DNA of 50,384 bases. Origin: Pseudomonadota bacterium (GTDB taxonomy: Bacteria; Pseudomonadota; Alphaproteobacteria; Micavibrionales; UBA2020). Position 1 is the first letter of the stretch. Every line of letters begins with the position of its first letter. The DNA is taken from assembly GCA_043806835.1 (NCBI GenBank), contig JAZDGQ010000037.1, forward strand, positions 1 through 50,384. Direction: 5' to 3'. Shown here piece by piece: positions 15,406-42,960 of this stretch. The notes below the pieces were generated by a model. That model had not been told where the DNA came from. It did not search any database and worked only from the letters and a program-made list of their open reading frames with translations. The position numbers and the translations under genes are program-made.

Positions 15406-15476
15406 GAAGGTCTCTTTTTGTCTTTCGGTCGGCGGGGAATCTGCACGGAAACGGTTGGGGAAAAGGCTCAATAAAC

Positions 15477-17323: not shown

Positions 17324-17755
17324 CGCCCTTTCCCCGACTTCCTGGCACCCCAGCCAGCCCTCTACAAGTATGGTAGGCGTTCCCGCATTTTTTGTCCAGT
17401 CAGCTTTTCTAAAATTTGTCTAAAAAACATGGAGATACGAGGAATTTCCTGTAGCGTCTCCCGAACCGCTCTAACCACTGTTAACAAAAAAACAGTTGCC
17501 CTTCGAAAGAAGAGCGGCTCAACATCAACCCAATGGAGCCGGAATACCACCTTATTTTTTACGCCGCGTGTCCAAAATTATCTGACGACGCACACTCTAT
17601 TACTATCTTGGATTGCCAGACGCAACGCCTCTGTCCTGCGAACAAGGTCGATCCTGACATTCCGGAAACGCGCGACGTCTGATTCCAGTTTTTCGCGTAC
17701 AATCCGTCTTTATTTCCATCGATTCGATGCTATATTCCGGTTTGGAGGGCTTACC

Positions 17756-18322: not shown

Positions 18323-19040
18323 TCCCCTTTTTCCCGGAAAGAATTCGATTTGTTTCGGCCAGCGCCTCCGGGGTGCCGACGTGGTGCCACGCGCCGTCAT
18401 GCCGCAACCCGCGAAGTCTTCCGTTTCGTTCCGCCTTGTGGAACAGTTCCAGAAACGGGAACGTTCCATCCGGCGCATCAGCGAACAGGCGCTGGTGAAC
18501 GATGCGCGGCCCTGCGAAAATATAGTTGGGAGTCTTGGTATTGTCCTTCCCCTTGGCGAAAACAGGACGGTCGGATCCTTCCGCCAGATAATAATCTCCC
18601 CTGCCCGTGCCCGAAGGGTGCAGCAGCAGCAGCAAATCCATTTCAGAGGAATCCCACTTGTCGGCGAGCGCCGTCAGCGTCGGTTTTTTTCCGTCCGTCC
18701 AGACTACATCGGCATTGAGCACATAGAACGGCGCATCGCCGAAGAACCCGATCATTTTTTTGACGCCGCCGCCGGTGTCGAGCAGTTCGGTTTCGCTGGA
18801 AATGGTTATCTTCGGGGATTTTCGCGGGCGGAGATGTTCCTCGATCATGGAGGCGAGGTAAAAAGTGTTCACCACCGCTTCCCCGACGCCGGCTTCGGCC
18901 AGCGCGTCGAGCGCGCGGTCCAGCATCGTCTTTCCCCCGACCGTAAGCAGCGGCTTCGGGCAGTCGTTCGTAAGCGGACGCATGCGCTCGCCCAGACCTG
19001 CGGCCAGAACGAATGCTTTTTCGGGCGGTGATGTCGTCAT
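18315..19040 (-). CDS. murU: Nucleotidyltransferase (MurU-like)
   Basis: LAAGLGERMRPLT..PKPLL, LDTGGG, WHHVGTP; ATG 19040 overlaps the tsaE stop. Confidence 0.8.
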   Translation of the reverse strand: MTTSPPEKAFVLAAGLGERMRPLTNDCPKPLLTVGGKTMLDRALDALAEAGVGEAVVNTFYLASMIEEHLRPRKSPKITISSETELLDTGGGVKKMIGFFGDAPFYVLNADVVWTDGKKPTLTALADKWDSSEMDLLLLLHPSGTGRGDYYLAEGSDRPVFAKGKDNTKTPNYIFAGPRIVHQRLFADAPDGTFPFLELFHKAERNGRLRGLRHDGAWHHVGTPEALAETNRILSGKKGIR

Positions 19041-19504
19041 TTCATTTCCTTCAGCCGCGCACACCAGGTTCCGAAAGGGGTAAGCGCCACCTGACGTAAG
19101 TTTTCAGAATCGTTGACAAAATCAATCTTTATTTCCAGTCTGTCTTCCGGCAAAAGGCTTCCCAACCTGTCCGGCCATTCGACCAGTGAGACACCGGAGC
19201 GGAGCGCCTCGTCCCACCCTAATTCCAGAATATCCATCTCTTTTTCCTCCAGACGATAAAGATCGAAATGCCAGATGGACAGTCCGGGCAGGTCGTACAC
19301 CTGCACCAGCGTAAAGGTCGGGCTCGGCACCTCTCCGGCTGTAGGGGACAGCGTGTGGACAAGCGTCCGGGCAAAGGCCGTTTTCCCAGCACCGAGGCTT
19401 CCCGCAAGCGTCACCACGTCGCCCGTTTTCAGCAACGGTGCAAGACTCGCAGCCAGCGGCTTCAGCGCGTTTTCGGTATCAATAAGCAGTGTCCGGCACA
19501 TCAT
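19037..19504 (-). CDS. tsaE: tRNA threonylcarbamoyladenosine biosynthesis ATPase
   Basis: GSLGAGKT, VPSPTFTLVQ, HFDLYRL, VEWP. Confidence 0.95.
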   Translation of the reverse strand: MMCRTLLIDTENALKPLAASLAPLLKTGDVVTLAGSLGAGKTAFARTLVHTLSPTAGEVPSPTFTLVQVYDLPGLSIWHFDLYRLEEKEMDILELGWDEALRSGVSLVEWPDRLGSLLPEDRLEIKIDFVNDSENLRQVALTPFGTWCARLKEMK

Positions 19505-19550
19505 TTTCTGATAAGCTCTCCCATTGAAATCAAAGTTAACGGTTATTCTT

Positions 19551-20564
19551 ATGCCGGAAAAGAAGTATCTGACAGATGTGACGATTGTCGGAGCGGGGCC
19601 TGCGGGGCTGTTTGCGGCGTTCGAGTGCGGCACGCTCGGGATGAAATGCCATATCGTTGACAGTCTGGAGCATGTCGGCGGCCAGTGCGCCGCCCTGTAT
19701 CCGGAGAAGCCGATCTACGATATTCCGGGCCATCCCTCCATTACAGCGGGAGAGCTGATTGAAAGGCTGGAAAGGCAGGCACGCCCGTTCGCGCCCGTCT
19801 ACCATCTCAATCAGACGGTCGAAACGCTGAAACGTGGAGACGACGGCCTCTATGAAGCAGGGACATCGACAGGCGCCGTCATCAGATGCAGGGCAGTCAT
19901 CATCGCTGCGGGCGCGGGCGCTTTCGGCCCCAATCGCCCGCCTATCGACGATCTGGAATCTTATGAAGGGAAGTCCGTTTTCTACAGGGTCGGGCGCCGC
20001 GACGATTTCTCCGGAAAGACGCTGGTGATTGCGGGAGGCGGCGACAGCGCGGTGGACTGGGCGGTCTCCCTCGCTGAGGTTGCCCAAAAGATATATTTTG
20101 TGCATCGCCGCAATAAATTCCGCGCTTTACCAGAATCAGTTGAAAAATTGGAGGCTCTGGTCAAAACCGGAAAAATAGAAAAAGTGATCCCGTATCAGCT
20201 GCACGGGCTGACCGGCGGAAACGGCTTTTTAAAGACGGTGGAGCTGACCGATCCCAACGGCGGGAAAAAAACGGTCGAGGCCGACGTCCTGCTGCCGTTC
20301 TTCGGCCTTGCACCGCAATTGGGCGCGGTTGCCGGTTGGGGCATCCCTATCGACAATCACAGAATCCCCGTCGATCCCTCAACACAGCAAACCAGTCTGG
20401 CTGGCGTGTTCGCCATCGGGGACGTTGCTGCATACCCGCGTAAGTTGAAACTGATCCTTACCGGATTTTCAGAAGCCGCCATGGCCGCCCATGCCATTTA
20501 TCCACTTGTCTTTCCGGGAAAAGAGCTCCATTTTGTATATTCAACAACGAAAGGCGTCCCTTGA
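19551..20564 (+). CDS. Ferredoxin--NADP+ reductase (thioredoxin-reductase-like)
   Basis: GAGPAG, GGQCAALYPEKPIYDIPG, GGGDSAVDW, GDVAAYPRKLKLILTGF. Confidence 0.9.
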   Translation: MPEKKYLTDVTIVGAGPAGLFAAFECGTLGMKCHIVDSLEHVGGQCAALYPEKPIYDIPGHPSITAGELIERLERQARPFAPVYHLNQTVETLKRGDDGLYEAGTSTGAVIRCRAVIIAAGAGAFGPNRPPIDDLESYEGKSVFYRVGRRDDFSGKTLVIAGGGDSAVDWAVSLAEVAQKIYFVHRRNKFRALPESVEKLEALVKTGKIEKVIPYQLHGLTGGNGFLKTVELTDPNGGKKTVEADVLLPFFGLAPQLGAVAGWGIPIDNHRIPVDPSTQQTSLAGVFAIGDVAAYPRKLKLILTGFSEAAMAAHAIYPLVFPGKELHFVYSTTKGVP

Positions 20565-20565
20565 C

Positions 20566-21111
20566 ATGTTTATTCAGACGGAACAAACCCCCAATCCCTC
20601 CAGCCTCAAATTCCTGCCCGGCTGCGAGGTCATGAAGCGAGGCACGGCGGAATTCAAAAATACCGACGAGGCGGCGGCTTCGCCGCTTGCAGGGAGAATT
20701 TTCAGAATACATGGTGTTGCCGGAGTATTCCTGGGAGGGGATTTCATCACCGTCACGAAGACTGACGCCGCGCGGTGGGCGGCGCTTGAGCCCATGATCC
20801 TCGGCGCGATCATGGAATATTTCGCCACCGGGCAGGACGTCCTGCACGGCGGGGACGTTCCCGCCGCCTCCGGGGACGACGATGAAATCGTCCGGAAGAT
20901 CAAGGAACTTCTCGACGTCCGCATCCGTCCGGTCGTGGCGCAGGACGGCGGCGACATTGTCTTTGACTCGTTCAGGGACGGAGTCGTCTACCTGCATCTG
21001 CGCGGCGCCTGTGCCGGATGCCCCGGCGCCGCCGCCACGCTCAAGACGGGTGTCGAAAGCGTGCTTCGGCATTTCATCCCGGAAGTCAAGGAAGTCCGGG
21101 CGGTGAAATAA
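20566..21111 (+). CDS. NifU/Nfu family Fe-S cluster carrier
   Basis: MFIQTEQTPNP..LKFLPG; IRPVVAQDGGDI; GACAGC. Confidence 0.93.
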   Translation: MFIQTEQTPNPSSLKFLPGCEVMKRGTAEFKNTDEAAASPLAGRIFRIHGVAGVFLGGDFITVTKTDAARWAALEPMILGAIMEYFATGQDVLHGGDVPAASGDDDEIVRKIKELLDVRIRPVVAQDGGDIVFDSFRDGVVYLHLRGACAGCPGAAATLKTGVESVLRHFIPEVKEVRAVK

Positions 21112-21118
21112 CGCCTGC

Positions 21119-24094
21119 ATGGGTGAAACACCATTAAAATCCGCGCCAACCGTTTATAACATCGCGGCCGGACAATCCTTTGCCGACGCGCTGGCGCAGG
21201 GGATTCTGGAATCCGCCGTCGAAAATCCGCTGAAGCTCTCCGAATGCACGATTTTGCTGCCGAGCCGCCGCGCCTGCCGCACCTTGCGCGAAGCCTTCCT
21301 GCGCCTGTCGGGAGGCAAGGCCGTCCTGCTGCCCGCCCTGCGCCCCATCGGCGACGTGGATGCCGACGAAGTGGCTCTGTTTCTGGCGGGGGGGGACGAC
21401 ATCGCGGAAAGCATCGATATTCCGCCCGCCGTTTCCAGGCTGGAAAGGCAGTTGTTACTGGCGCAAACGATCCAAAAGGCCGAAAAGGAAATGTCCTTCG
21501 ATCAGGCGGCGGCTCTCGCGCTGGGACTCGGCCACTTTTTGGATGAAGTGCAGACGGAGCGCTTAGGGTTTGACGGCCTGGCCGGACTGGTTCCGGAGGA
21601 GTTTGCCGGGCACTGGCGGAAGACCATCGAATTCCTCAAAATCCTGACGGAACACTGGCCCGCCATCCTTGCAGAGAGGGGCGTTATAGACTTCGCGGAG
21701 CGGCGCAACCTTCTGCTGGAGGCGCAGGCGCGTGCGTGGAAAAAAAATCCGCCGCAGGGGCAGGTTGTCGCCGCCGGATCAACCGGCACCGTTCCGGCGG
21801 CTGCGGAATTGCTGTCCCTTGTCGCGAGACTGCCGCAGGGGATGCTGGTACTGCCGGGGCTGGACACAGGCATGGACGCGGAAAGCTGGGACGCTCTCAG
21901 CGGGGATCATCCGCAGTACAACATGAAAAAGCTGCTCCTGACGGTCGGCATAAAGCGCGGGGACGTGCAGGACTGGCCGTTGCGGAAAAAACCAGTTGTC
22001 AATTCTCACCGCGTGCGCCTGATGTCGGAAGCGATGCGTCCCGCCGATACCGCGGAAAAGTGGCGCAAGCTGAAGGCCGGCGCGCTGTCCGGCGAGGCTC
22101 TCGACGGATTCACGAGGATAGACTGCGATACGCCCTCGGCGGAAGCGGACGTGATCGCCCTCTCCATGCGGGAAACGCTGGAGACGCCCGGAAAGACATG
22201 CGCCCTGATTACGCCGGACCGCCGTCTGGCGCGGCGCGTCTCCTTAAGCCTCCGCCGCTGGGGGATCGCCGTCGACGACTCCGGCGGGCAGCCTCTGACG
22301 GAGCTTCCCGTGGGCGCATGGCTGATGCTGACGGCGGAAATGGCGGAGGAGGATCTCGCCCCGGTGACGCTGCTGTCCTTCCTGAAGCATCCTTTTCTGG
22401 CTGAAGACTTGCGCTGCGGCGTGTCCGCTCTGGACGAACTGGCGCTGCGCGGACCTCGCCCCTCCGGCGGCTTTCAGGGGCTGCGCGACGCGGCGGCGGC
22501 GGCGGACTGCAAGTCCCTGCCCGGCTGGCTCGATAAAATCGAGGCGAGGATGAAGGACTTCGTGCAGATGATGTCGTCGCCCGGGGAAAAACCGTTTCAT
22601 GAAATTCTGACGCGCCATATCCGCATGGCCGAGGATCTGGCGGCGGCGGCGGGCGTTCCCGGACCCGTGCGGCTCTGGCAGGGCGATGCCGGAGAAGCCG
22701 CCTCGGAATTTCTCGGCAATCTGCTCCGGTCTTCCCGCGACGTCCCTCCCCTGTCGCCGGAGCATTACATATCCCTTCTCGGCACGCTGCTGAAAACAGT
22801 GACGGTGCGCCCGAGCTTTGGCTCCCATCCGCGCCTGAGCATTCTGGGGCAGATCGAGGCGCGGCTCTACTGCGCCGACAGGGTGATTCTGGGAGGATTG
22901 AACGAAGGGACGTGGCCGGGTCTTCCGGCGCACGACCCGTGGATGTCGCGCCCGATGCGGAAACGGTTCGGCCTGCCGTCTCCGGAGAGGAGCATCGGCC
23001 TCGCCGCGCACGATTTCGCGCAGGCGGGAACGGCGGCAGAAGTGATCGTCACGCGGTCGAAAAAAACGGACGGCGCGCCGACCGTCCCGGCGCGGTGGCT
23101 GTTGCGTCTTGAGACCGTGCTGAAGGCGGCGGGGCTGGACTGGCCGGAAACGCAGGCGCAGAAATACCGCCAGTGGGCAAAGGACATGGACAGGCCGCCG
23201 GAGATCAGACCCGTTTCCCGTCCGTCGCCGACGCCTCCCGTCGAGGCGAGGCCGCGCAAGCTGTCGGTGACGAAAATCGAGAACTGGATGCGCGACCCGT
23301 ATCAGATTTACGCGAAATATGTGCTTGGACTTGATGCGCTTGATCCACTTGACGCCGATCCTGGCGGCGCCGAACGCGGCACGTTCATCCATGCGGCGCT
23401 GGAGAGATTTATCAAAGAGTTTCCTGATGATCTTCCCGACGATGCGGAGGCGCGGTTGCTGGCCTTCGGGCGGAACGCCCTGACGGAAATGCGGATACCG
23501 CAGGAAGTCGTGGCGTTCTGGTGGCCGAGGTTCGAGAAAATCGCCGGCCTTTTCATCCGGCAGGAACGCGACTGGCGGGAGAAAGCCAGCCCGTATCTGA
23601 CGGAAATCGATGGACGCTGGCATTTTGAGGCTCCCGGCGGGTCTTTCACCCTAACCGGAAAAGCCGACCGCATCGACAGGCTCCGCGACGGAAGCTATGC
23701 GATCATCGATTACAAATCCGGCGTCGCGCCCGAACCCCGCGAGGTGAAAGCCGGCCTCTCGCCGCAACTGCCTCTGGAGGCGGTTATTCTGGAGAAAGGC
23801 GGTTTCGAAAAAATCTCCGGAAAAGTTAGTGAACTGATCTACTGGAAAGTCACGGGCAGCGGGCAAAACCCCGTCGAGAAAAAATCCGCCGTGCCGAAAG
23901 ACGCCAGTGCAGACCAGATAATCGCGGACGCAGAGGCGGGGCTGAAGGCACTTGTGGCGCGGTTCGACGATGCGTCCACGCCCTACCTGAGCCGCCCCCG
24001 ACACGACGCGAAGCCGCGCTTTTCGGACTACGAGCATCTGGCGCGCACCAAAGAATGGAGCGTGGCGGGCGATGACGGGGAGGAAGCGGCATGA
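21119..24094 (+). CDS. addB: Double-strand break repair protein AddB
   Basis: LPSRRACR, AAGSTG, HPQY, LGQIEARL, RDPY, ADRID..IIDYK nuclease motifs. Confidence 0.95.
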   Translation: MGETPLKSAPTVYNIAAGQSFADALAQGILESAVENPLKLSECTILLPSRRACRTLREAFLRLSGGKAVLLPALRPIGDVDADEVALFLAGGDDIAESIDIPPAVSRLERQLLLAQTIQKAEKEMSFDQAAALALGLGHFLDEVQTERLGFDGLAGLVPEEFAGHWRKTIEFLKILTEHWPAILAERGVIDFAERRNLLLEAQARAWKKNPPQGQVVAAGSTGTVPAAAELLSLVARLPQGMLVLPGLDTGMDAESWDALSGDHPQYNMKKLLLTVGIKRGDVQDWPLRKKPVVNSHRVRLMSEAMRPADTAEKWRKLKAGALSGEALDGFTRIDCDTPSAEADVIALSMRETLETPGKTCALITPDRRLARRVSLSLRRWGIAVDDSGGQPLTELPVGAWLMLTAEMAEEDLAPVTLLSFLKHPFLAEDLRCGVSALDELALRGPRPSGGFQGLRDAAAAADCKSLPGWLDKIEARMKDFVQMMSSPGEKPFHEILTRHIRMAEDLAAAAGVPGPVRLWQGDAGEAASEFLGNLLRSSRDVPPLSPEHYISLLGTLLKTVTVRPSFGSHPRLSILGQIEARLYCADRVILGGLNEGTWPGLPAHDPWMSRPMRKRFGLPSPERSIGLAAHDFAQAGTAAEVIVTRSKKTDGAPTVPARWLLRLETVLKAAGLDWPETQAQKYRQWAKDMDRPPEIRPVSRPSPTPPVEARPRKLSVTKIENWMRDPYQIYAKYVLGLDALDPLDADPGGAERGTFIHAALERFIKEFPDDLPDDAEARLLAFGRNALTEMRIPQEVVAFWWPRFEKIAGLFIRQERDWREKASPYLTEIDGRWHFEAPGGSFTLTGKADRIDRLRDGSYAIIDYKSGVAPEPREVKAGLSPQLPLEAVILEKGGFEKISGKVSELIYWKVTGSGQNPVEKKSAVPKDASADQIIADAEAGLKALVARFDDASTPYLSRPRHDAKPRFSDYEHLARTKEWSVAGDDGEEAA

Positions 24095-27000
24095 CAGATC
24101 CTGCCTTGAAAAAACCGCAGGGAGAGGAACACCCGAGCCTTCGGCAGTCGCAAGCGTCCGATCCGATGCGGAGCGTCTGGGTGGAAGCGTCCGCAGGCAC
24201 CGGAAAGACGAAAGTCCTGATCGACCGCGTGCTGCGCCTGATGCTGCCGCGCCCCTCTCTGCCCCGAGAAAGCGCGACGCCGCCGGGAAAAATCCTGTGC
24301 CTGACTTTCACAAAAACGGCCGCCGCAGAAATGTCGAACCGGATTTACGAACGCCTCGGCGGCTGGTCGGTCAAAAGCGACGCGGAGCTTCACAAGGAAT
24401 TGCAGGAGCTGGTCGGAGAACCCCCCTCGCCGGAGATGCAGGAGGAGGCGCGGCGGCTGTTCGCGCGCGTTCTGGACGCGCCGGGCGGCCTGAAAATCAT
24501 GACCATCCACTCGTTCTGCCAGTCGGTGCTGAAACGGTTTCCGGTCGAGGCCGGATTGCCGCCGCATTTCGAGCTGATGGACGAGCAGAGCGCCGTCGAA
24601 TACCTGACGCTGTGCCTGCATAACATCATCAGGGAAGCGCGGGAGAATCCCGGCTCGGTTCTGGCGCAGTCGTTCAATCAGCTCGCGCTGCATCTCGACT
24701 CCGCGGCCATGTCGGAGCTGATGCGGCAGATCATGTCCAGCCGCAGCCTGCTCGCCGGGATCCTGAAAGAGCACGGCGACGCGGAAGCCTTGGCCGGGAA
24801 AACAATTCAGGCGGCGTACCGGCATCTCGGACTCGATGAAAAGACGACGGAGCAGGATATCCTGTCGCGGGCGGGGAGGCTCGCAGATACGGAGGAAGCG
24901 GAGCTTAAAAAAGTTCTGGACGCGCTGCTGAAAGGAGGAAAAAAAGATACGGACAAAGCCTTCTTTATTCAGCCGTGGCTGGAGCAGAAGCAACGACGAG
25001 GGGAACTGCTGCCGTCTTACCGTCATGCCTTCTTCACGAAGGAAGGCGAAATCCTGAAAACGCTCGCCACCAAGGCGTCGGTTGAGGCTTACCCCGATAT
25101 CGTCTCCGTGATGCAGAAAGAGGCCGAACGTCTGGACGCGCTGCAACAGGAATTGCGTTCCGTGCGTCTGGCGGAGCTCAATGCCGCCCTGCTGACGGTC
25201 GCCGCCGCGATGGTCGGGCATTACGCGCGGCACAAGAGATACCGCAACAAACTCGATTTCGACGATCTGATTATCAAGACCTGCGATCTGCTCTCGGAAG
25301 AGGATATGGCGCCGTGGGTGCTGTTCAAGCTGGACGAGGGGATCGACCACATCCTGGTGGACGAGGCGCAGGACACCAGCCGCAACCAGTGGCGGGTGGT
25401 GGAATCCCTTTGCGGGGAGTTCTTCGCGGGGCGCGGCTCGCGGGAAGACACTCAGAGGACGCTGTTCGTGGTGGGCGACGAAAAGCAGTCCATCTTCAGC
25501 TTTCAGGGAGCCGACCCCCGCGAGTTCGCGCGGATGCGGGGATTTTTCGGGGGGAAGGCGGGCGGCATTCAGTCCGGCTGGGAGATTTTCCTGGAATATT
25601 CCTTCCGCTCGACGCGCGCTGTTCTGGAGGCGGTCGATGCCGTTTTCAGCCGGGAGACGACGAGAAAAGGCGTCGTTTCCGGACAGGATCGCGGCGTGAA
25701 GCACCTGCCTTTCCGCGCCGGGCACGCGGGGATTGTGGAACTGTGGCCTCTCATTCAGACTGCCGTGAAGGAAAAACCCGCGCCGTGGCTCCTTCCGACG
25801 GAAATCGACGAGGGCGACGATGCGGCCGCCCGCCTCGCGCATAAAATCGCCGCGACGATCAAGGGCTGGATCGGCGGAAAAGAAATGCTCGCCTCCAGAG
25901 GCCGCCCTATCCGCGCCGGGGACGTGCTGATTCTGGTGCAGTCGCGGGGAGCCTTCGTGGATCTTCTGCTCCGCGCCCTGAAGGGCGCCGGGGTGCAGGT
26001 GGCGGGAGTGGACCGCATGACGCTGACCGAGGAGATCGTCGTGATGGATCTGCTGGCTCTGGCGCAGTTCGCGCTGCTGCCGGAGGACGATCTGACTCTG
26101 GCCAGCCTGCTGAAGTCGCCGATGGTCGGGATGACGGAGGAAGACCTTTATCTCCTGTGCCATGAACGCAAAGGCGCGCTCTGGCCGTCCGTGCGGCGGA
26201 ATAAGCCGGAACTGGCGGCGTGGCTGCAAACCCGGATCGGGAAGGCCGGGCGCGTCACGCCTTACGAGTTTTTCGCGGAGGCGCTCAACACGCCCTGCTT
26301 CGCGGATAAAGTCAGCGGACGCCGCGCTCTGTACGGACGGCTCGGCTTCGATATTCAGGACGCTCTGGATGAATTCCTGAACAGTTGTTTACAGTACGAG
26401 CAAAGCCATACCCCGTCGCTGCAGAAATTCATCGGCTGGTTCTTGCGCGGAGAGGCGCAGATCAAGCGCGAGCAGGCGCAGGACGGCGCGGACATGGTGC
26501 GGATCATGACGGTGCACGGCGCCAAGGGGTTGCAGTCGCCGATTGTGTTCCTGCCGGACACCGTCAAGAAACTTCACGATCACAACAAGGGGCGCGCGCA
26601 CCTTCTCTGGCCGGAGAACGAGGCGGGCGTGCCGCTGTGGTCGCCGCGTCAGGAATTTTCGGCTCCGGTTTACGCCGAAAGGCAAAGTCAGGCGCTGGAG
26701 CGTCAGGAGGAGGAATACCGGCGCCTTCTATACGTCGCCCTCACCCGCGCCGAGGACAGGCTGTACATCTGCGGGTATCACGGCGTCCGGAGTCCGAAAC
26801 CGGATTGCTGGTACAGCCTCGTCGCGGAGGCTTTTCCATCCCCTGCCGCAGAGGAAGAGGGGGATATCCGCCGTCTGGAGCATCCGCAGGAAACCGCGCC
26901 CGAAAAAGAAAAGAATCTCAGGGAAAAAAGCGCCGCCGCCCGCGCCCCGTTGCCGGAGTGGGCTTTCCGGGAGCCTTCGATTGAGCCTTCTCCGCCCAAG

Positions 27001-27582
27001 CCTCTCGCGCCGTCCAGACCGGATGATCTTGAACCGGCGATGAAAGGGCCTCTGGCGGAAGACGAAGGCCGGAAATTCAGCCGGGGCGTCATCGTGCATC
27101 AAATCCTTGAACTCCTGCCGCAGTTGCCGGAGGATAGGCGGGAGAAAGCGCTGATGCAGTATCTGGCGCGCCCGCACCTGCATCTGCCGCCGGAACAGCA
27201 GAAATTTTTCGCGGCAGAGATTCTTGCGGTGCTTCGGCATCCTGAATTCGCCGCCATTTTCGGGGCAGGGTCGCGCGCCGAGGTTCCGGTGACGGGGCTC
27301 ACGGAAAGTGCTCGGCGAATCGCGCCGCAAATTCTCTCCGGCCAGATAGACCGGATTCTGGTGACGGACAAGGAAGTGCTCATCATCGATTACAAGACCA
27401 ACCGCCCGCCGCCCGCCAGTGCCCGGGACGTGCCCGTTATCTACCTGAAACAAATGGCGGCCTATCGCTCCGTTATTTGTAATATTTATCCGGAACACAG
27501 GATCAATTGCGCCCTGCTGTGGACGGATGGACCCGTTCTGATGCCCCTTTCGGATAATCTTCTTGATCCGCACGCACCGTAG
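24091..27582 (+). CDS. addA: Double-strand break repair helicase AddA
   Basis: ASAGTGKT, VDEAQDT, GDEKQSIF, MTVHGAKG, LYVALTRA, IDR..IIDYKT. Confidence 0.96.
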   Translation: MTDPALKKPQGEEHPSLRQSQASDPMRSVWVEASAGTGKTKVLIDRVLRLMLPRPSLPRESATPPGKILCLTFTKTAAAEMSNRIYERLGGWSVKSDAELHKELQELVGEPPSPEMQEEARRLFARVLDAPGGLKIMTIHSFCQSVLKRFPVEAGLPPHFELMDEQSAVEYLTLCLHNIIREARENPGSVLAQSFNQLALHLDSAAMSELMRQIMSSRSLLAGILKEHGDAEALAGKTIQAAYRHLGLDEKTTEQDILSRAGRLADTEEAELKKVLDALLKGGKKDTDKAFFIQPWLEQKQRRGELLPSYRHAFFTKEGEILKTLATKASVEAYPDIVSVMQKEAERLDALQQELRSVRLAELNAALLTVAAAMVGHYARHKRYRNKLDFDDLIIKTCDLLSEEDMAPWVLFKLDEGIDHILVDEAQDTSRNQWRVVESLCGEFFAGRGSREDTQRTLFVVGDEKQSIFSFQGADPREFARMRGFFGGKAGGIQSGWEIFLEYSFRSTRAVLEAVDAVFSRETTRKGVVSGQDRGVKHLPFRAGHAGIVELWPLIQTAVKEKPAPWLLPTEIDEGDDAAARLAHKIAATIKGWIGGKEMLASRGRPIRAGDVLILVQSRGAFVDLLLRALKGAGVQVAGVDRMTLTEEIVVMDLLALAQFALLPEDDLTLASLLKSPMVGMTEEDLYLLCHERKGALWPSVRRNKPELAAWLQTRIGKAGRVTPYEFFAEALNTPCFADKVSGRRALYGRLGFDIQDALDEFLNSCLQYEQSHTPSLQKFIGWFLRGEAQIKREQAQDGADMVRIMTVHGAKGLQSPIVFLPDTVKKLHDHNKGRAHLLWPENEAGVPLWSPRQEFSAPVYAERQSQALERQEEEYRRLLYVALTRAEDRLYICGYHGVRSPKPDCWYSLVAEAFPSPAAEEEGDIRRLEHPQETAPEKEKNLREKSAAARAPLPEWAFREPSIEPSPPKPLAPSRPDDLEPAMKGPLAEDEGRKFSRGVIVHQILELLPQLPEDRREKALMQYLARPHLHLPPEQQKFFAAEILAVLRHPEFAAIFGAGSRAEVPVTGLTESARRIAPQILSGQIDRILVTDKEVLIIDYKTNRPPPASARDVPVIYLKQMAAYRSVICNIYPEHRINCALLWTDGPVLMPLSDNLLDPHAP

Positions 27583-27624
27583 TTATAAACTGTCTTTTCA
27601 ATAACTTTAGCAGGGAGAACGCAA

Positions 27625-27945
27625 ATGGGCGCTCAACATGTCACGGATGCCGATTTCGAGGCCGAAGTCCTGAAGGCCGTTGGCCCCGTGCTGGTGGATT
27701 TCTGGGCGGAGTGGTGCGGCCCCTGCCGTTCCCTCACCCCCAGCATCGACGCGCTGGCCGCCGAGAAAAGCGGACAGATCAAGGTGGTCAAGGTGAACGT
27801 CGACGAAAGCCCCAACGCGCCGGGCAAATACGGCGTGCGCTCCATTCCGTCGCTGTATATTTTCAGGGACGGAAAAGTGGTGGCGCAGAACGCCGGCGCG
27901 CTGTCGAAATCCGAACTCTTCAAATGGGCGGAAGGCGTGATCTGA
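27625..27945 (+). CDS. trxA: Thioredoxin
   Basis: VDFWAEWCGPC; canonical addB-addA-trxA order. Confidence 0.96.
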   Translation: MGAQHVTDADFEAEVLKAVGPVLVDFWAEWCGPCRSLTPSIDALAAEKSGQIKVVKVNVDESPNAPGKYGVRSIPSLYIFRDGKVVAQNAGALSKSELFKWAEGVI

Positions 27946-27968
27946 CCTTCCCCGCCGCCCGGCATCCC

Positions 27969-30266
27969 CTATTCACAAGAGCAGGTCGGATAGTTGTTGA
28001 ACTTTGAGCCCGGAGCATAACCCCAGCAGGAGGCTGTGGCGTATTGGGAAGGACATCCGGAACCTATCAGCGAACCCGCGCCCTGGGAGCTTGAAAGAAC
28101 CGGGGTTGACTGCGCCTTCCATGTGAACGTAACGGGCGAACAGGTCGTCGGAGGATCCGGGAAGTCCACCCACGCGCTCCATCCGGTGCCGCAGGTGTAC
28201 GTCCTTTTCTGCACCTTGTTGCCGGCAAAACCGGCGCCACAGCTTACCGTCCGCATTTCCGCCGGCAATCCCGTGCAGACGCACGTATTTACGACATCAG
28301 CCCAGGCGGACCATGTCGAGGGGCAGGTGAACGTGCGGCTCTGCGTCCATATCCCCGTGTAAGCCGTGGGGCAACTCAGGTTTTGCGTCTGCGTGAGCGC
28401 GTTGCAGACGCAGGTATCGCTGATGACATACCAGGCCCCCCATGAACCGCTTGTCGGGGTGCCGCACGTCCAGTCACGCTGCAGCATCTTGCCGCCAGTC
28501 CATGACGCGGAGCAGGTTCCGGCTGTCGTCTGCGATATTGGCGTGCAGACGCAGGCGGAAATATCGGTCGTGGTGTTCGACGCATAAGGCAAACATGTGG
28601 TGACGGTGTGCACGGTAGCGTTTCCCGTCCACCCGCCGGCGAGAACCGAGGTGCAGAGAGGATAAGTGGTGGTATCGGCTGCGGTGCAGGAGCAGACCCC
28701 GGTGGCGCTGAACAACGACCATGCCCCGGCGTTGCATTTGTAGGTCGCGACGCGGGAATCCCCGGCCGTCACGGATTGCGTCTGCCCCTGGACGCCCGCC
28801 GCCAGCATCCGGTCATTCGCAGTGCAGACCGTCACCGTCCTGGCCGGGCAGGGCACGGGGACGACGCAGTTCAGCGAGCCGGTGGCCGTACTAACTCCGG
28901 TCAGCAGCGCGCCCGGAGGGCACCTGAATTCGGGAACAGTCGTGCAGATAACCTGGCCGTTGGCGATCCCCGACACATATTCGCCTGCGGGGCATTTCAT
29001 TTCCGCCTTGTCGCCGGTGATTTTGTCCGTCGGGAAACAGGAAGTTCCCGCCTTGTCGCAAAGCTCTGTCACCAGCAGGCTGTCACGGCCCCGGATGTCC
29101 CCCGCGACCTCGACGGTTTGCGTCTGTATTGCCGCGCCGACTCCGACCGTGCCGCCACCCGGGCTTCCCGCATTGACGAGATCACGGATATTGGAACTGT
29201 CGGTGGCAACCCTCCAGAGAGGCGTATCGACGGCCGTATAATACTCCACGTTGTCGTCGAAATGCGCGGCTCCGCTGACGGAGGCCTTCGCCGCCGCCCT
29301 GTAGACGGCGCTGGCGGCGGAAGTATTGCAGTTTTCAGTGTCGAGATTCCCCGCAGGGCAGGGTACCCCCATCTTGCCCTGCCGTGTAGTGGCGCCCTGC
29401 TTGTCCGGGCCGTGGCTGACCATCACGAAGTGGGCGGATCCCGCCGGCTCGACCAAAGTATTGCCGTTGCCGTCCACGACGGCTACCCCGCCGGAATTCT
29501 TGTCGTAAGTCCCTGACACGGCCAGGGGCTCAGTCACCGCATAATCGATCTTCATGCCATAGCCGTCCTCCGAAAATTCTTCCGGCAGGTTCAGCGTACG
29601 GAAGGGAACGGTTCCCCGCCGGACGCGCGGCGCCGTGCCGGCAAAAGCGGGAACGCTGACCTCTGCAAAAATGCCCAGGAATCCCGAGTGTATTTGATAG
29701 AATCTCATTTCGCCAACATCACAGAGATCATGATCATGACTAAGCGGACACGTCGCCTCGAACTCGTCTCCGGAGTTTGGGCATTTCATGGAAGGGTCGT
29801 TTGTGTATATAAAACCAAGATATTCTGCATAATTGCAGGGGGCTGCCCCGCACAACCATGAATCGAGAAGCATTTCAGGGTGATCCGACGCCATCTGCGG
29901 CCCGGGTCCGAGGACTTCCATGGCAGGCGTCGCGCCCAGAAGCCGCGCGCCGGTCTCGATGCAGATGCCATTGGCGCAGGTGCCGGCGGCCTGGGAAACG
30001 TCCGCGCAGTCCCCCTCCATTCCGTAGTCCGGGCTGTTTCTGTCCAGATCTGCGCGCGCCGGGCAGGGATACCTGCCCTGCTGTATCAGGAAGTTCCCGA
30101 CAGCCCGCGTCACCAGCCCTGTATTGCTGACGGTCGTATCCGTCGTCGTTTTCCTGATGTAAACGTTATATCCTGCCAGAAAGGACGATATCAGGACGCC
30201 CGCGACAAGAGTGACGATGGCCAATTCGATCAGGGAATGCCCCGTCTCGGAATTTCTTTTTTTCAT
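27969..30266 (-). CDS. Large prepilin-type adhesin-like protein (765 aa) with C-terminal Cys/Trp repeats
   Basis: Start reset to MKKRNSETG|HSLIELAIVTLVAGVLI with GGAG SD; shares the YPCPA, VPFRTL, DGYG..YAV, SHG and FDD scaffold with the two upstream genes. Confidence 0.85.
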   Translation of the reverse strand: MKKRNSETGHSLIELAIVTLVAGVLISSFLAGYNVYIRKTTTDTTVSNTGLVTRAVGNFLIQQGRYPCPARADLDRNSPDYGMEGDCADVSQAAGTCANGICIETGARLLGATPAMEVLGPGPQMASDHPEMLLDSWLCGAAPCNYAEYLGFIYTNDPSMKCPNSGDEFEATCPLSHDHDLCDVGEMRFYQIHSGFLGIFAEVSVPAFAGTAPRVRRGTVPFRTLNLPEEFSEDGYGMKIDYAVTEPLAVSGTYDKNSGGVAVVDGNGNTLVEPAGSAHFVMVSHGPDKQGATTRQGKMGVPCPAGNLDTENCNTSAASAVYRAAAKASVSGAAHFDDNVEYYTAVDTPLWRVATDSSNIRDLVNAGSPGGGTVGVGAAIQTQTVEVAGDIRGRDSLLVTELCDKAGTSCFPTDKITGDKAEMKCPAGEYVSGIANGQVICTTVPEFRCPPGALLTGVSTATGSLNCVVPVPCPARTVTVCTANDRMLAAGVQGQTQSVTAGDSRVATYKCNAGAWSLFSATGVCSCTAADTTTYPLCTSVLAGGWTGNATVHTVTTCLPYASNTTTDISACVCTPISQTTAGTCSASWTGGKMLQRDWTCGTPTSGSWGAWYVISDTCVCNALTQTQNLSCPTAYTGIWTQSRTFTCPSTWSAWADVVNTCVCTGLPAEMRTVSCGAGFAGNKVQKRTYTCGTGWSAWVDFPDPPTTCSPVTFTWKAQSTPVLSSSQGAGSLIGSGCPSQYATASCWGYAPGSKFNNYPTCSCE

Positions 30267-30292
30267 GACACAGTCTCCATGCTGTTTTATTT

Positions 30293-31456
30293 TCAGGGCG
30301 TCCCGCATATTATGCTCCCCGCCGCGTTGAATCCTTTTACATACTGCCCAGACGGACACGTCCCTGACGCCAGGCCGGTGGGATTGACCTTCGGCACGCA
30401 AACCACCTCCGCCTCCTTGATCCCGTTGACGGCCCCGTTGGCGCCGCAGGTGACCCCGGCTCCGCCGATCATCTTCGCCGGGAAGCAATTGTCTCCGTCC
30501 CCATCGCAATACTGATCCCCGAGCGTCCGCTGCGCGCGCAGACTGCCATTGACGTCAAGCATCATATCGGGCTGATCCGTGCCGATGCCCACGCTGCTGT
30601 TCGCCGTGTTATAAATGCTTTTCGACACGACGTTGGAATACCCCCATCGGTCTATCCGCATGTTGTTGCTCGTGACCAGAATCTTGTCATCGAAATAATC
30701 CGGCCCGGGGCGGAGGCTTCTGTGCTGGCTGTAATCGTAAAAAACGCCCGTGTTGCCGCAATTGAACAGATCGAGCCCGGCATCCGTGCCTGAGCAGAGT
30801 CTCCTTTTTCCAGAAAGGTTATACGCTCCGACGCCATTTTCCCCGTGGGACAGGACGACGAACGGCGTGGCATAAACAGTGGCCACACCGTCCACATAAG
30901 TCGTCTTGGGGGTCGGAACCCAGGCCGCCGCCGCATTCGGAACCTCTATGTCGATAACCCCGTAAGGGTCCTGATCCGGAGGGGAATAAGTGGCGGGATC
31001 CGTCAGGTACTTCGAGACGGCATAAAGAAATTTGTTCCCCCAGCCATCCATGCTGACCTCGATCGGAAGATTGAGGGTTACATAGGGAATCGAACCGATG
31101 TAAACCTCATCGACGTCCGCGTCAACGTCCGCAGAGGTGTCGCGCCCTCCGTCCACGAGGCATCTCCCGTCCGCCACGCATCCCGATACCGTCAGGCATA
31201 TCTCTTTTCCGGAGTCTGCCTCGCTTGGTCCCAGAGTCGGCTTCGCGGGACAGGGCAGGCGGCCGTTTTCGGTCAGAAACTTGTCGAGGGCGGTCTGGAT
31301 GGCCTCGCCGCGGTAGCCTGTGTCCGAAACGTACCTCTGCCTGTGGGACTCCTTGTACAGCTGAAGGGTCGTCCCCCCGACAATCCCGGCAAACACAAGA
31401 AGGATCGACAACTCGACCAAAGAGAAGCCTCTATTCGCTTTTTTCCCGGCACCCAT
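30293..31456 (-). CDS. Prepilin-type N-terminal domain protein (minor pilin/adhesin-like)
   Basis: RG|FSLVELSILLVFAG; LPCPA, IPYVTL, DGWGNKFLYAVS, SHGENG, YFDD, VGIGTDQP..LDVNG. Confidence 0.88.
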   Translation of the reverse strand: MGAGKKANRGFSLVELSILLVFAGIVGGTTLQLYKESHRQRYVSDTGYRGEAIQTALDKFLTENGRLPCPAKPTLGPSEADSGKEICLTVSGCVADGRCLVDGGRDTSADVDADVDEVYIGSIPYVTLNLPIEVSMDGWGNKFLYAVSKYLTDPATYSPPDQDPYGVIDIEVPNAAAAWVPTPKTTYVDGVATVYATPFVVLSHGENGVGAYNLSGKRRLCSGTDAGLDLFNCGNTGVFYDYSQHRSLRPGPDYFDDKILVTSNNMRIDRWGYSNVVSKSIYNTANSSVGIGTDQPDMMLDVNGSLRAQRTLGDQYCDGDGDNCFPAKMIGGAGVTCGANGAVNGIKEAEVVCVPKVNPTGLASGTCPSGQYVKGFNAAGSIICGTP

Positions 31457-31592
31457 GATTAACCCCTGGAATCCCTTTCACCCCTGATTCTACAGGAGTT
31501 GTTTCAACGAAATATTAACAAAACGCTACAAAACGGAAAAATTTTAATAAAACAAGAGCTTATTGCAGCCTCTTCGAAAGGCCGCAGGCAGA

Positions 31593-32957
31593 CTACGGAG
31601 TTTCGCAAATGATCGTTCCGAGCAGGGTCACCCCGACTATGAATTGTCCGGCCGGACAGGTTTGCCCGCCGGGCGTGAGCACCGGCAATGGAATATCCCC
31701 GGAGCACAGAACGTACCCCGGATTGGCGCCGTTCTGTCCCGCAATCCCCGTCACAAGCTTGATGTTGTTGGCTGTCGCCGTCGTACAGCCGATCCCCGTG
31801 ACGCCGCCAAGGATGTCCGGATCAAAACAGTAGGCGTTACCCGAGTCATGCGTGTAATCGCACAGGAGAGGCGTGTTGACGTCATCTCCCCTGACAGGAC
31901 CGATGACGTCCATTTTATACGCAGGATTGTCTGTTCCGACTCCGACATTTCCTTTATTGAGGTTGTAAAGGGTGTTTTCAAACCCGAACGCCTTTGAATA
32001 ATCCCAGAGCCTGGAAATGACATACGCCTCATACGTCACCAGATCGTCGAAATACCCCACGCCGGACACTATGGATCTCAGGCCGTCTATAAAAACAGAC
32101 CCCCCGTTGCAATTGTTTCCTTCGAGCGCAGGGGATGCCGGACAGGGAAACGTGATGCTGCCGTTTACGTTATGGGCTCCGAAGCCGTTATCTCCGTGAG
32201 AAACGAGCGCATAATGCGCCCCATCTGTGGGTTGAACCAGCGTCCTTCCGAATTCATTCCGGACGGCGACGGCTCCATGCGAAGTATCGAAAGTGGCCGT
32301 CTGCGCCATGTATCCGCTGACAGCGTAGGTGAATTGATGCCCCCAGGCATCCCGCACGAGCTCCATATGCATGGTGTTCGCCCTCTTGTCCCCCTCGAGG
32401 GGGCCCCACATTCCTGCGCCGAGATCCGTCGCGAAAGCTGCCGCGGAGACATGGTCAGACATGCACTTGTACGGAATACTGCTCTCCCAGACAATATCAC
32501 CCGCCACATACCCGTGGGAAGTCACCCAGTCCGCCGCCGATGCGGTGGCGGAAGCCCATCTCAGGGTTCTGAAGGGGACTCCCCCGGTCAGAACGGGATC
32601 CGTGTCCGTATCGCCGTCAGCTGCCGTATCGCGCGCTCCGGCCACCTTGCACACGCCCCCGACACATGTCCCTATGGGCACCGCGAAGGACATCAGGGCA
32701 CAATTCTCGATTCCGGCGCCAGGATCCGTCATATCCAGAGAAGGGTCCGCCGGACAGGGGTACCTATTGCTGGCGTTCGTGAAATCTGAAAACGACGCCT
32801 TGATCGCATTCATTCGTTCATATGTTTCCGTAAAGCGCTGACGCTTGACATAGCCGTCATACGACTGCATACCCGCCACCAGCAGCAGACCGGAAATCAC
32901 CAGCACCGCCGAAAGTTCGAGAAGCGTAAAACCTCCTGAATAACGGGAATATCTCAT
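31593..32957 (-). CDS. Prepilin-type N-terminal domain protein with inserted carbohydrate-binding-like module
   Basis: GG|FTLLELSAVLVISG; same scaffold plus a W-x4-Y-x2-GD-x-V..YKC..H..W insert. Confidence 0.88.
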   Translation of the reverse strand: MRYSRYSGGFTLLELSAVLVISGLLLVAGMQSYDGYVKRQRFTETYERMNAIKASFSDFTNASNRYPCPADPSLDMTDPGAGIENCALMSFAVPIGTCVGGVCKVAGARDTAADGDTDTDPVLTGGVPFRTLRWASATASAADWVTSHGYVAGDIVWESSIPYKCMSDHVSAAAFATDLGAGMWGPLEGDKRANTMHMELVRDAWGHQFTYAVSGYMAQTATFDTSHGAVAVRNEFGRTLVQPTDGAHYALVSHGDNGFGAHNVNGSITFPCPASPALEGNNCNGGSVFIDGLRSIVSGVGYFDDLVTYEAYVISRLWDYSKAFGFENTLYNLNKGNVGVGTDNPAYKMDVIGPVRGDDVNTPLLCDYTHDSGNAYCFDPDILGGVTGIGCTTATANNIKLVTGIAGQNGANPGYVLCSGDIPLPVLTPGGQTCPAGQFIVGVTLLGTIICETP

Positions 32958-33021
32958 TGTGCCGGATCCCCCAAATACACCGTCCCATCATACATTTTAA
33001 GTCCAAAAGTCTGAAAAATCG

Positions 33022-42174: not shown

Positions 42175-42960
42175 ATGGCTCAAAGTTCAACAATCGAATG
42201 GACGAATGCAACGTGGAATCCTGTCACGGGATGCACAAAGATAAGTGCCGGGTGTGATTTCTGCTATGCAGAACGCTTTTCCGAACGCTTTAGAGGAGTA
42301 AAAGGGCATCCCTTTGATAAGGGATTTGACCTCAGCTTAAGACCGGAGCGTCTTGAGCAACCGCTATCGTGGAAAAAACCGAAAATGATTTTTGTTAATT
42401 CCATGAGTGACCTTTTTCACAAGGATGTTCCCAAAGAATATATTGAACGTGTTTTTGAGACGATGGAAAAGGCTGATTGGCATATATTTCAGGTTCTCAC
42501 AAAACGCAGTTCCTTAATGAAAAAGTTTGTTAATCAGAGATACAAAGATAAAAAAGTTCCAGAGCATATTTGGCTAGGTGTTTCCATCGAGGATGGGACA
42601 AAGCTGTCTCGAGTAAAACATCTTCAGGAGATCAATGCTAGCGTCCGCTTTCTCTCAGTAGAGCCTTTGATAGGCGCTCCCGAAAAGTTGAATTTGGAAA
42701 AAATTAAATGGGTAATTGTTGGCGGGGAAAGCGGGCCTTTTGCACGTCCGATGCAGCTTGAATGGGCGCGTTCTGTCAGAGACCAATGTATAAATCAGAA
42801 AGTGCCTTTTTTCTTTAAGCAATGGGGTGGTTTTAGACCGAAAGCCGGTGGACGCTCTTTAGACAGCAAAGAGTGGAGTCAGTTTCCAAAGCTTTCAAAA
42901 AAACTTTCTGACCCCAATGATTTATTTCAGAATGCCGCAAAGCGGGTCGGTGGCAGATAA
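42175..42960 (+). CDS. DUF5131 / phage Gp37-Gp68 family radical-SAM-like protein
   Basis: IEWTNATWNPVTGCTKISAGCDFCYA (Cx6Cx2C), FVNSMSDLFH, QVLTKR, FLSVEPL, WVIVGGESG, FFFKQWG; AT-rich. Confidence 0.92.
   Translation: MAQSSTIEWTNATWNPVTGCTKISAGCDFCYAERFSERFRGVKGHPFDKGFDLSLRPERLEQPLSWKKPKMIFVNSMSDLFHKDVPKEYIERVFETMEKADWHIFQVLTKRSSLMKKFVNQRYKDKKVPEHIWLGVSIEDGTKLSRVKHLQEINASVRFLSVEPLIGAPEKLNLEKIKWVIVGGESGPFARPMQLEWARSVRDQCINQKVPFFFKQWGGFRPKAGGRSLDSKEWSQFPKLSKKLSDPNDLFQNAAKRVGGR

Follow-up and report, generated by a model that had tools for sequence, protein, structure and literature searches.

The contig JAZDGQ010000037.1 of an alphaproteobacterial genome deposited as Pseudomonadota bacterium (GCA_043806835.1; Micavibrionales, UBA2020) carries three consecutive genes, here designated A, B, and C, for large prepilin-type proteins that combine a common scaffold with differing modules. 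The locus raises the question of whether these proteins are three alternative adhesins, as proposed in a first-pass annotation of the DNA, or rather parts of one structure. The window, i.e., the whole analyzed stretch of 50,384 nucleotides, was therefore considered together with the remaining genome, related loci, and known protein structures. The favored answer, to which we assign a probability of roughly 55%, is that A, B, and C together would form the tip of a retractile type IV pilus, a heterotrimer decorated with lectin modules. The genes are the following:

31593-32957, minus strand: gene A, encoding a 454-aa modular prepilin of lineage A (open reading frame and translation)

30293-31456, minus strand: gene B, encoding a 387-aa prepilin of lineage B, the shortest form of the scaffold

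27969-30266, minus strand: gene C, encoding a 765-aa prepilin of lineage C, counted from the ATG giving MKKRN

The three open reading frames (ORFs) are arranged head to tail on the minus strand, with gaps of 136 nt (A/B) and 26 nt (B/C). The longest ORF for C begins at a TTG codon at position 30509, which was not adopted as the start because of its overlap with gene B. A GGAGA sequence is located 8 nt before the ATG at 30266, and a second ATG at 30308 is likewise accompanied by a Shine–Dalgarno-like sequence; the mature protein is identical from either start.

In a three-sequence alignment, B and C were 37% and 32% identical to A, respectively, and the three proteins matched one another in a six-frame search with E-values between 4e-20 and 9e-9. 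A six-frame search of the 2.1-Mb, 97%-complete genome retrieved no further copies of the trio. All motifs listed in the first-pass annotation were recovered in each protein and in identical order, comprising, in the N-terminal part, the leader G↓F/H-S/T-L-x-E (the arrow marks the predicted cleavage), (Y/L)PCPA, G.(V/I)P(F/Y).TL, and D(G/A)(W/Y)G followed by YAV, and, further on, SHG, NC, FDD, W, VG(V/I)G ... (D/E)V.G, CD...CF, and CP.G....G....G...C. Regarding D(G/A)(W/Y)G...YAV, the motif as such was present, and the spacer of three residues given previously had to be corrected to four. With motifs ordered alike and identities of 32-37%, the initial description of three tandem prepilin-type paralogues sharing a scaffold holds, and the proteins are regarded here as paralogues on the basis of their sequences.

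The leaders read MRYSRYSGG↓FTLLE (A), MGAGKKANRG↓FSLVE (B), and MKKRNSETG↓HSLIE (C), with Glu5 in all three, in agreement with type IV prepilins, in which a short, basic leader up to the Gly precedes some 20 hydrophobic residues. The residue following the cleavage Gly is Phe in A and B and His in C (window positions 30240-30242); it is Tyr in 15 of the 17 other C orthologues and Phe in two orthologues from another family. The prepilin model TIGR02532 was passed by A only (20.5 bits vs. a cut-off of 16.3), and N_methyl was detected at E ≤ 0.1 in 46 of the 52 orthologous proteins (17/18 for A, 13/16 for B, and 16/18 for C). The first-pass annotation had named standard type II secretion system pseudopilins as the outcome that would speak against its proposal; GspG scores amounted to 19.9 and 15.2 bits (cut-off 88.85), those for GspH to 17.7 and 11.9 bits (cut-off 80), and C yielded no hit. 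At 12-20 bits vs. cut-offs of 80-89, the proteins do not score as standard pseudopilins.

Structure prediction by AlphaFold2 (AF2) pointed in the same direction for the N-terminal parts. In the model of B, residues 9-260 were confident and formed a long helix (13-64) and a sheet, and residues 263-387 obtained predicted local distance difference test (pLDDT) values under 50. The model of C featured a helix (12-63) and a sheet, left the insert (112-209) unmodelled, was poor at 347-399, and was fairly confident for 470-765. In the comparison of the B model with known structures by VIA-align, ranks 1-14 were all occupied by pilins or pseudopilins, headed by the pilin CofA (9iuf; Z 6.2, root-mean-square deviation 3.8, 153 residues aligned) and including EpsG (Z 5.3); pilins also headed the list for C (CofA, Z 5.6; EpsG, Z 5.3). 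These models are in agreement with a type IV pilin fold of the N-terminal parts.

Beyond the pilin part, the three proteins share a module that was modelled as a trimer:

31596-32051, minus strand: C-terminal module of A, residues 303-454 (FDD ... VGVG ... CD..CF ... CP.G..C), modelled in the trimer and included in module alignment A8

30296-30694, minus strand: C-terminal module of B, residues 255-387, modelled in the trimer

28857-29261, minus strand: trimer module of C, residues 336-470, scored as the partner chain in the model and included in A8

The module alignment A8 consisted of 51 rows, excluding the A row of locus L036 with masked letters (this A orthologue, L036:7449-8678, is partly X, corresponding to an N stretch in the DNA). 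Searching the PDB with the A8 profile retrieved the Bdellovibrio protein Bd2133 (8ond) with an E-value of 7.2e-10 over three stretches, followed by further Bdellovibrio MAT fibres (8oml, 1.5e-5; 8ol4, 1.1e-4; 8ojn, 1.1e-3; 8on4, 0.015) and, weakly, by MyRF (7dc3, E 0.13). All of these matches run through the segment G.VGIGT..P...L.V.G, which corresponds to the 'capping loop' described for intertwined trimeric beta-helices, with the consensus V-G-G/N-pi-X-X-P-X-X-X-L, in a publication that also notes the link to MyRF (PMC10769870); the motif found here is one residue longer before the Pro than the published consensus. The impression that VGIGT..P..LDV.G resembles phage tail-fibre repeats was hence substantiated by matches to five MAT sequences. 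Among 1.84 billion representative sequences, the A8 profile matched 103,812 proteins at E ≤ 1e-3, and the best matches were giants of 1,800-7,900 aa featuring 15-58 matched stretches each. The motif can therefore be addressed as a very common fibre repeat that is used once per chain in the trio.

The modules A303-454, B255-387, and C336-470 were modelled together as one complex, each with its own orthologue alignment. The A+B+C complex obtained a score of 0.84 (0.84, 0.74, and 0.84 in the individual runs), and the best of three controls reached 0.15. Of 157 solved complexes, 116 attained a score of 0.84, as did 2 of 215 mismatched pairs, counts that apply only roughly to a model of three chains built with custom alignments. 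The runs agreed in at least 88% of the contacts, of which 560-570 were counted, and the pLDDT of the partner chain was at least 82 (82-86), compared to under 50 for the module in the B monomer. The modules can thus be modelled as a MAT-type trimer, which supports binding among them.

Whether such a trimer would be mixed is addressed by the distribution of the three genes among relatives. B homologues were detected in 30 of the 41 genomes searched, the window's own included: in 24 of 24 genomes of the same family, and in 2/3, 2/2, 1/2, 0/1, 0/3, 0/3, and 0/2 genomes of other families of the order. In 20 related loci, ORFs were sorted by their best hit to A, B, C, or a 263-aa pilin that is also encoded in the window:

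11850-12641, plus strand: 263-aa prepilin PIL263 (TIGR02532, 24.7 bits), 16 kb from the trio

When clear lineage members were defined by scores of at least 130 bits, 15 of the 20 loci contained one clear member of each lineage, 14 of them in the order A-B-C; best-hit members of lineage A occurred in 18 loci. Three loci were less clear, two encoding three shorter paralogues and one a single protein of 1109 aa. A second A-B-C array (L037) was observed in the same-genus genome G001 alongside L036. A homologue of the 263-aa pilin was located beside the trio in 11 of the 20 loci, within the stretches fetched, and in a second, overlapping set of 79 loci found via the pilin in named records, seven featured the whole trio beside the pilin, two of which are labelled Micavibrio sp.; the three loci labelled M. 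aeruginosavorus (L065, L086, and L116) displayed the pilin only.

A quick maximum-likelihood tree of the A, B, and C proteins (52 rows) placed B in one clade (SH-aLRT 99), 17 of the 18 C proteins in another (95), and, with weak support (84), the 16 A rows from the same family in a third; the sub-groupings were much alike within each lineage. Since lineage clades and parallel sub-groupings were obtained, the triplication appears to predate the family, each genome keeping one of each, and A, B, and C are best described as three old, co-inherited gene lineages instead of a free repertoire. The case for a mixed trimer would be founded on this one-of-each conservation and on the asymmetry of C. In this respect, the first-pass annotation requires revision: it had assumed a repertoire diversified by paralogy, analogous to PilV, and three alternative adhesins. 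Given one-of-each conservation and the predicted A+B+C trimer, the proteins would be three parts of one tip. In the PilV shufflon of IncI plasmid thin pili, variable C-terminal parts of the prepilin set pilus binding. No shufflon-like inverted repeats were found, only two weak pairs of 21 and 18 nt, and, different from a shufflon, a recombinase is absent among the 40 ORFs scanned and the trio varies between genera, through inserts.

These inserts distinguish the proteins of the window as discretely as had been described initially, with a 52-aa insert in A, only short loops and no large insert in B, and both an insert and repeats in C:

32394-32549, minus strand: insert of A, residues 137-188 (52 aa), a CBM5/12-like variable loop (Pfam CBM_5_12, E 0.035)

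29640-29894, minus strand: insert of C, residues 125-209 (85 aa), AT-rich with five Cys

The insert of A follows directly after the GGVPFRTL strand, and that of C directly precedes RGTVPFRTL, placing them on opposite sides and at different sites; the three-sequence alignment of A, B, and C misplaces these insert sites. For the A insert, the CBM_5_12 match (E 0.035) lies under the Pfam cut-off, and the chitin-binding domain of ChiA1 (1ed7) was matched with E 0.52. A weak CBM_5_12 match was present in 2 of the 18 A orthologues, namely that of the window and, at another site, that of L043 (E 0.0067). The C insert has a GC content of 0.49, compared to 0.61-0.65 in its flanks and 0.626 for the rest of the gene; its pLDDT in the AF2 model was under 40, no recognised fold and no Pfam or PDB match was obtained, and it was homologous solely to the insert of the same-genus relative L036 (34% identity, E 3e-16).

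In orthologues, the same positions proved to be variable between genera, as had been anticipated for hypervariable insertion sites. After residue 136 of A, inserts of 0-74 aa were counted among 18 orthologues, at most 2 aa in nine of them and 52 aa in the window, and L043 possesses a 51-aa insert after residue 324. After residues 153 and 157 of B, inserts of 76-77 and 34 aa occur in three loci of one genus, and B of L037 has a tail of 313 aa w/o Pfam match. After residue 124 of C, inserts range from 0 to 85 aa (window 85, L036 81, L044 79, and L047 78). SUEL_Lectin exceeded the Pfam cut-off in 3 of the 16 B orthologues (E 1.3e-12, 1.7e-10, and 1.1e-9) and, among the 18 C orthologues, in that of L047 alone (residues 163-235, E 3.1e-11), where it occupies the same site as the C insert of the window; the C insert of L044 was judged SUEL-like by eye only. 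Identical inserts in relatives, which would have spoken against modularity, were not encountered; the inserts differ, and the variable sites host unrelated modules across orthologues, several of them of sugar-binding type. The combination of a pilin with a module foreign to pili, which defines modular pilins in the sense of Raynaud et al. (2021), was found in relatives, namely in the four orthologues with SUEL_Lectin, and in the window it consists of the MAT-type module, the weak CBM5/12 match, and modules not recognised by the searches, in accordance with the earlier designation as modular prepilin-type proteins.

C alone continues beyond the trimer module:

27972-28856, minus strand: distal extension of C, residues 471-765, composed of some five beta repeats that are rich in Cys and roughly 47 aa long

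This arm comprises 295 aa with 24 Cys, and its repeat unit reads C.C ... (Y/F)TG ... C ... W(S/G)xW ... C.C; at the DNA level, a direct repeat with a spacing of 141 nt was observed in the region. In alignment A7, covering 16 of the 18 C orthologues, 28 columns were invariant, 24 of them being Cys, and two loci encode an arm with two extra units. AF2 predicted the arm (residues 470-765) as beta-rich with pLDDT values of 65-87. The repeat region had no PDB sequence match at E ≤ 10 and, in 16 of 16 members, no Pfam match at E ≤ 1; comparison with the Atlas gave sub-threshold rows only. By VIA-align, residues 470-528 resembled HormR (2x57, Z 5.2), Gpr126 (6v55, Z 5.1), and FnI (1tpn, Z 4.3), which are small disulfide-rich modules aligned over about 50 residues and serve as a lead only. 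A thrombospondin-type repeat, brought to mind by the W(S/G)xW motif, received no support from any tool result, and the beta-propeller lectins retrieved for C by Foldseek from the PDB (E 1.3e-3) were not trusted at TM values of 0.05-0.09. As its position would be distal to the trimer module, the arm would be the outermost part of the tip.

A tip presupposes a pilus, the machinery of which was found elsewhere in the genome. As noted previously, no assembly ATPase, secretin, or recombinase is adjacent to the trio; none of the 40 window ORFs scanned matched a T2SSE-family ATPase, a secretin, or a recombinase (Pfam, E ≤ 1e-5). Contig C33 encodes PilC (T2SSF), a TPR protein, a PilD-type peptidase (A24_N_bact and Peptidase_A24), two PilT-like ATPases, a secretin, and an AraC regulator, and a PilB-like ATPase of 593 aa is located on contig C15. 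In total, the genome features seven T2SSE matches over the cut-off, plus secretins, so that both a prepilin peptidase and an assembly machine are encoded (A24_N_bact, Peptidase_A24, T2SSF, T2SSE, and secretins). PilM_2 gave only weak hits in the genome, and clear PilM/N/O/P were not seen in the C33 cluster (14187-28234; locus L135). Within this cluster, an ABC-type ATPase and the TPR protein lie between pilC and pilD, several genes (539, 218, 272, and about 261 aa) are w/o Pfam match, and the secretin shows a weak Secretin_N_2 match under the Pfam cut-off.

In the relatives L041, L042, and L047, the stretch upstream of pilin and trio contains a regulator gene of the AraC family and two genes of no known family, to which a secretin gene is added in L041. 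Here, the AraC gene and the same two genes sit together on C33, after the genes from PilC to the secretin. Furthermore, a second pilin of about 270 aa is encoded on contig C106 beside dapE and dapD, which follow the trio in relatives. It seems that an ancestral cluster broke apart in this genome and that the trio was thereby stranded between trx and mscS.

The genome yielded only five prepilins of this class, namely the trio and two pilins of about 265 aa. The trio would, if so, provide the sole candidates for minor pilins, and minor pilins prime pilus assembly in other systems. PIL263 is likely the major pilin of the same pilus. Upstream of its gene, a gap of 850 nt (10999-11849) was noticed, with a GC content of 0.47 in the bin 11001-12000; this gap may represent an extended regulatory or promoter region serving strong expression of the pilin. 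Two loci from records of named metagenome-assembled genomes (MAGs), L059 and L132, contain six and seven ORFs matching the ~265-aa pilin, respectively, with no trio beside them, which would amount to another kind of pilin repertoire.

The pilin also bears on the identity of the host. Scanning species genomes with the pilin alignment (A3) yielded 422 confirmed stretches encoding relatives, 80 of which were kept, and many of these 80 originate from MAGs labelled Micavibrio sp., Micavibrio aeruginosavorus, or Alphaproteobacteria; a contig scan with B as the sole query retrieved no relative. Since relatives of the pilin often carry Micavibrio labels, the host is probably a Micavibrio-like epibiotic predator, a lifestyle that the first-pass annotation had brought up as a condition for prey recognition.

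Taken together, the following sequence of events is proposed. A PilD-type peptidase would cut each protein after the Gly of its leader, and each would insert via its N-terminal helix and pilin domain atop a filament of the ~265-aa pilin. The three C-terminal modules would intertwine into a short common stalk, trimeric and of the tail-fibre/MAT type, resulting in a single heterotrimeric tip that probably also primes pilus assembly, since the genome revealed no further minor pilins. This tip would display exchangeable modules, i.e., the CBM5/12-like loop of A, the Cys-rich module of C, SUEL lectins in relatives, and the disulfide-rich arm of C, which may attach to glycans or to further components of a cell surface, prey being the most likely target. 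Retraction by PilT/PilU could then pull the cells together. The assumption of plausible pilus-tip adhesins is thus supported in outline.

Several observations weigh against this scheme, the steps of which, from cleavage and tip location to ligands and predation, are inferred from sequences and models. The likeness to pilins is structurally middling (Z 5-6), and Foldseek returned nothing from the PDB at E ≤ 1e-3 for the B or C models. Glu5 is kept in all three chains; tip-most subunits of the GspK type are not known to keep it. Each chain carries one copy of the fibre motif, compared to several in MAT fibres, and the window's own modules are weak or not recognised, with the CBM5/12 match below the cut-off and both the C insert and the repeats unmatched. 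In this genome, the trio adjoins no pilus gene among the 40 window ORFs (Pfam), and the gene order is C-A-B in L047 and X-C-A in two loci of another family. Regarding the mixed trimer, the complex model is unable to tell a heterotrimer from homotrimers, because the chains are paralogous, cousins of a true partner pass the test, and solved MAT homotrimers may guide the prediction; conserved residues specific to a lineage amount to two columns only in the trimer module, which neither supports nor weakens a heterotrimer.

The nearest competing explanation, that each paralogue forms its own homotrimer and the cell thus possesses three kinds of tip, comes close to the repertoire originally imagined and is considered rather unlikely. 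It would have precedents in CofB, a homotrimeric initiator at the tip (PMC6048534), and in the MAT homotrimers (PMC12428579), and it fits the shared scaffold of the three modules, a complex test that passes close cousins, and the two arrays of some relatives such as G001 (L036 and L037). The one-of-each pattern in 15 of the 20 loci and the alike sub-groupings of the tree argue against it, as does the fact that only C features a distal arm and a distinctive residue after the cleavage site, an asymmetry also described for KilL/M/N and PilA/B/C (PMC12075869). It is quite improbable, in our estimation, that the three are ordinary minor pilins, located as monomers within the shaft or engaged in priming assembly, with C-terminal modules that fold independently in cis as adhesin domains and a trimer model that is an artefact. 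In the monomer models, the module remains unfolded (pLDDT under 50), while the trimer reaches 82-86, and in solved structures the motif forms part of inter-chain trimeric beta-helices; such monomers would nevertheless agree with the single fibre motif per chain, with conserved Cys pairs that could close loops within a chain, and with the wide distribution of modular pilins bearing one grafted domain (PMC8179133). Finally, parts of a type II secretion-like pseudopilus, or released proteins, were taken into account. Weak NCBIfam matches to GspG/GspH point that way, as do shorter pilin-domain homologues in other Proteobacteria that match GspG weakly (E 1e-9 to 1e-4), and Micavibrio is reported to be w/o annotated GspCGHK, for which pilus proteins might substitute (PMC3189940). 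This explanation is very improbable in view of Gsp scores of 12-38 bits vs. cut-offs of 80-89, trio proteins three to five times the size of pseudopilins, two PilT-like ATPases sharing a gene cluster with a secretin and a PilD peptidase, and lectin modules in orthologues, which argue for outward display.

The proposed heterotrimeric tip was compared with known systems. CofB and TcpB are the large minor pilins of type IVb pili (CFA/III of ETEC and TCP of V. cholerae, respectively); CofB combines a pilin domain with trimerising beta domains in a homotrimeric tip initiator that primes assembly and features a lectin-type fold (PMC6048534). The trio resembles CofB/TcpB in its N-terminal pilin domain followed by beta-rich C-terminal domains, for which the complex model predicts a trimer, and CofA, the partner major pilin of CofB, was the top structural match of the trio pilin domains. 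CofB differs in being one gene product in a type IVb operon that forms a homotrimer with a beta-repeat and an H-type lectin, whereas the trio comprises three paralogous genes, the tail-fibre/MAT motif, PilT-like ATPases, and a PilD with N-terminal domain; CofB/TcpB gave no sequence match to the trio in the PDB searches. In the Kil Tips of Myxococcus, the adjacent minor pilins KilL, KilM, and KilN are predicted to form an interwoven heterotrimer with many disulfides on a Tad pilus and are proposed to recognise prey (PMC12075869); these heterotrimeric KilLMN Tips, which are linked to prey range, are also covered in a review (PMC12428579). Both systems share three adjacent minor pilin genes, a predicted heterotrimer, and a largest subunit with a distal domain, variable in Kil, a likeness of design only; the trio is distinguished by its leader G↓F-x-L-x-E and a PilD-type peptidase, both of which point to a non-Tad pilus, and by mutual paralogy and the tail-fibre motif. 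The main text of the Kil publication reports tip genes in Myxococcota only and does not contain the word 'Micavibrio' (PMC12075869).

The MATs (mosaic adhesive trimers) of Bdellovibrio bacteriovorus are described as Sec-exported homotrimers of ~1000 aa with a conserved, beta-rich N-terminal domain of ~130 aa and several motif copies, 13 of 21 ending in an S74 chaperone, and one Bdellovibrio MAT binds prey glycans (PMC10769870); the review likewise presents MAT fibres as homotrimers (PMC12428579). The motif G.VGIGT..P...L.V.G and variable modules are common to MATs and the trio, which differs by its pilin anchor and a single motif per chain; a Sec signal together with the ~130-aa domain was not found in the trio, and Peptidase_S74 gave no match at E ≤ 0.1 in the window proteins or the 52 orthologues. 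Modular pilins as such occur widely, numbering over 1,200 proteins of 264 architectures (PMC8179133). In Streptococcus sanguinis, pilins carry grafted modules (vWA in PilB, a lectin in PilC, alongside PilA), and a tip of three minor pilins including the lectin is described (PMC8179133, PMC12075869, PMC9934059). PilB (7b7p) appeared in our structural list at Z 3.6, and the system differs in its monoderm pilus, three mutually unrelated proteins, and end-on modules, those of the trio residing mostly in pilin loops. The trio hence shares its design with CofB/TcpB, S. sanguinis, and Kil, and its motif with MATs, and is a member of none of them. Particular to it are mutual paralogues, a trimer element of tail-fibre type fused to pilins, loop-inserted modules, and, in a lineage of alphaproteobacterial predators, a non-Tad machine equipped with PilT. 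No description of Micavibrio pilins with a MAT-type motif was found in our literature searches.

The means by which epibiotic predators such as Micavibrio recognise their prey and keep hold of it are not known, and the trio represents a testable candidate for this step, with lectin modules that vary among genera. The Micavibrio genome paper of 2011 lists prepilin operons, reports high expression of some pilus genes, and refers to older work implicating carbohydrate receptors in the contact with prey, which was stated to need re-examination (PMC3189940). The trio would join the trimeric type IVb tip pilins, the Tad 'Tips' of Myxococcus, and the MAT adhesins of Bdellovibrio, in each of which predators or pathogens decorate filament tips with swappable binding modules. 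A bolder idea, offered tentatively, is that fibre and pilus have been fused, Micavibrio-type predators mounting a phage-tail-fibre-like grappling tip on a retractile type IV pilus, with C-terminal modules of MAT/S74 type intertwined into the heterotrimeric stalk and with the exchangeable modules in the pilin loops and on the arm of C setting the choice of prey. If true, this would be the alphaproteobacterial counterpart of both the Bdellovibrio MAT fibres and the Myxococcus Kil Tips.

Transcription of the trio is weakly suggested by a groundwater metatranscriptome run, in which three short contigs matched B and C with 99-100% identity (28185-28360, 29552-29711, and 31283-31480), the last spanning the start of B and 24 nt upstream. 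In this run, 8% of the sampled words were present, and the pieces of contigs on the thioredoxin gene were short and conserved, stemming from other organisms; parts of the trio that lack coverage carry no information. Since DNA can be present in RNA libraries, the hint is of limited weight. A promoter-like site was noted as well:

32987-33015, minus strand: promoter-like site upstream of gene A, from a consensus scan alone (9/12 matches)

The consensus scan returned five sites in the region vs. 2.5 expected.

The trio is flanked by housekeeping genes, with AddB, AddA, and thioredoxin encoded to one side and an MscS-type channel together with SppA to the other, and the Pfam scan of the 40 ORFs also revealed the alphaproteobacterial regulator GcrA. 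Since trx, AddA, MscS, SppA, and orf195 had no matches in the 20 related loci, the position of the trio in this genome is not conserved. Elsewhere in the window, a low-GC stretch of two genes (42175-44079; GC 0.38-0.41 vs. about 0.6 around) sits between a ZnuA-like gene and genes for an ABC ATPase and permease. One of the genes encodes a DUF5131 protein (E 3.8e-95) and the other a protein of 372 aa w/o Pfam match; the stretch looks like an inserted cassette.

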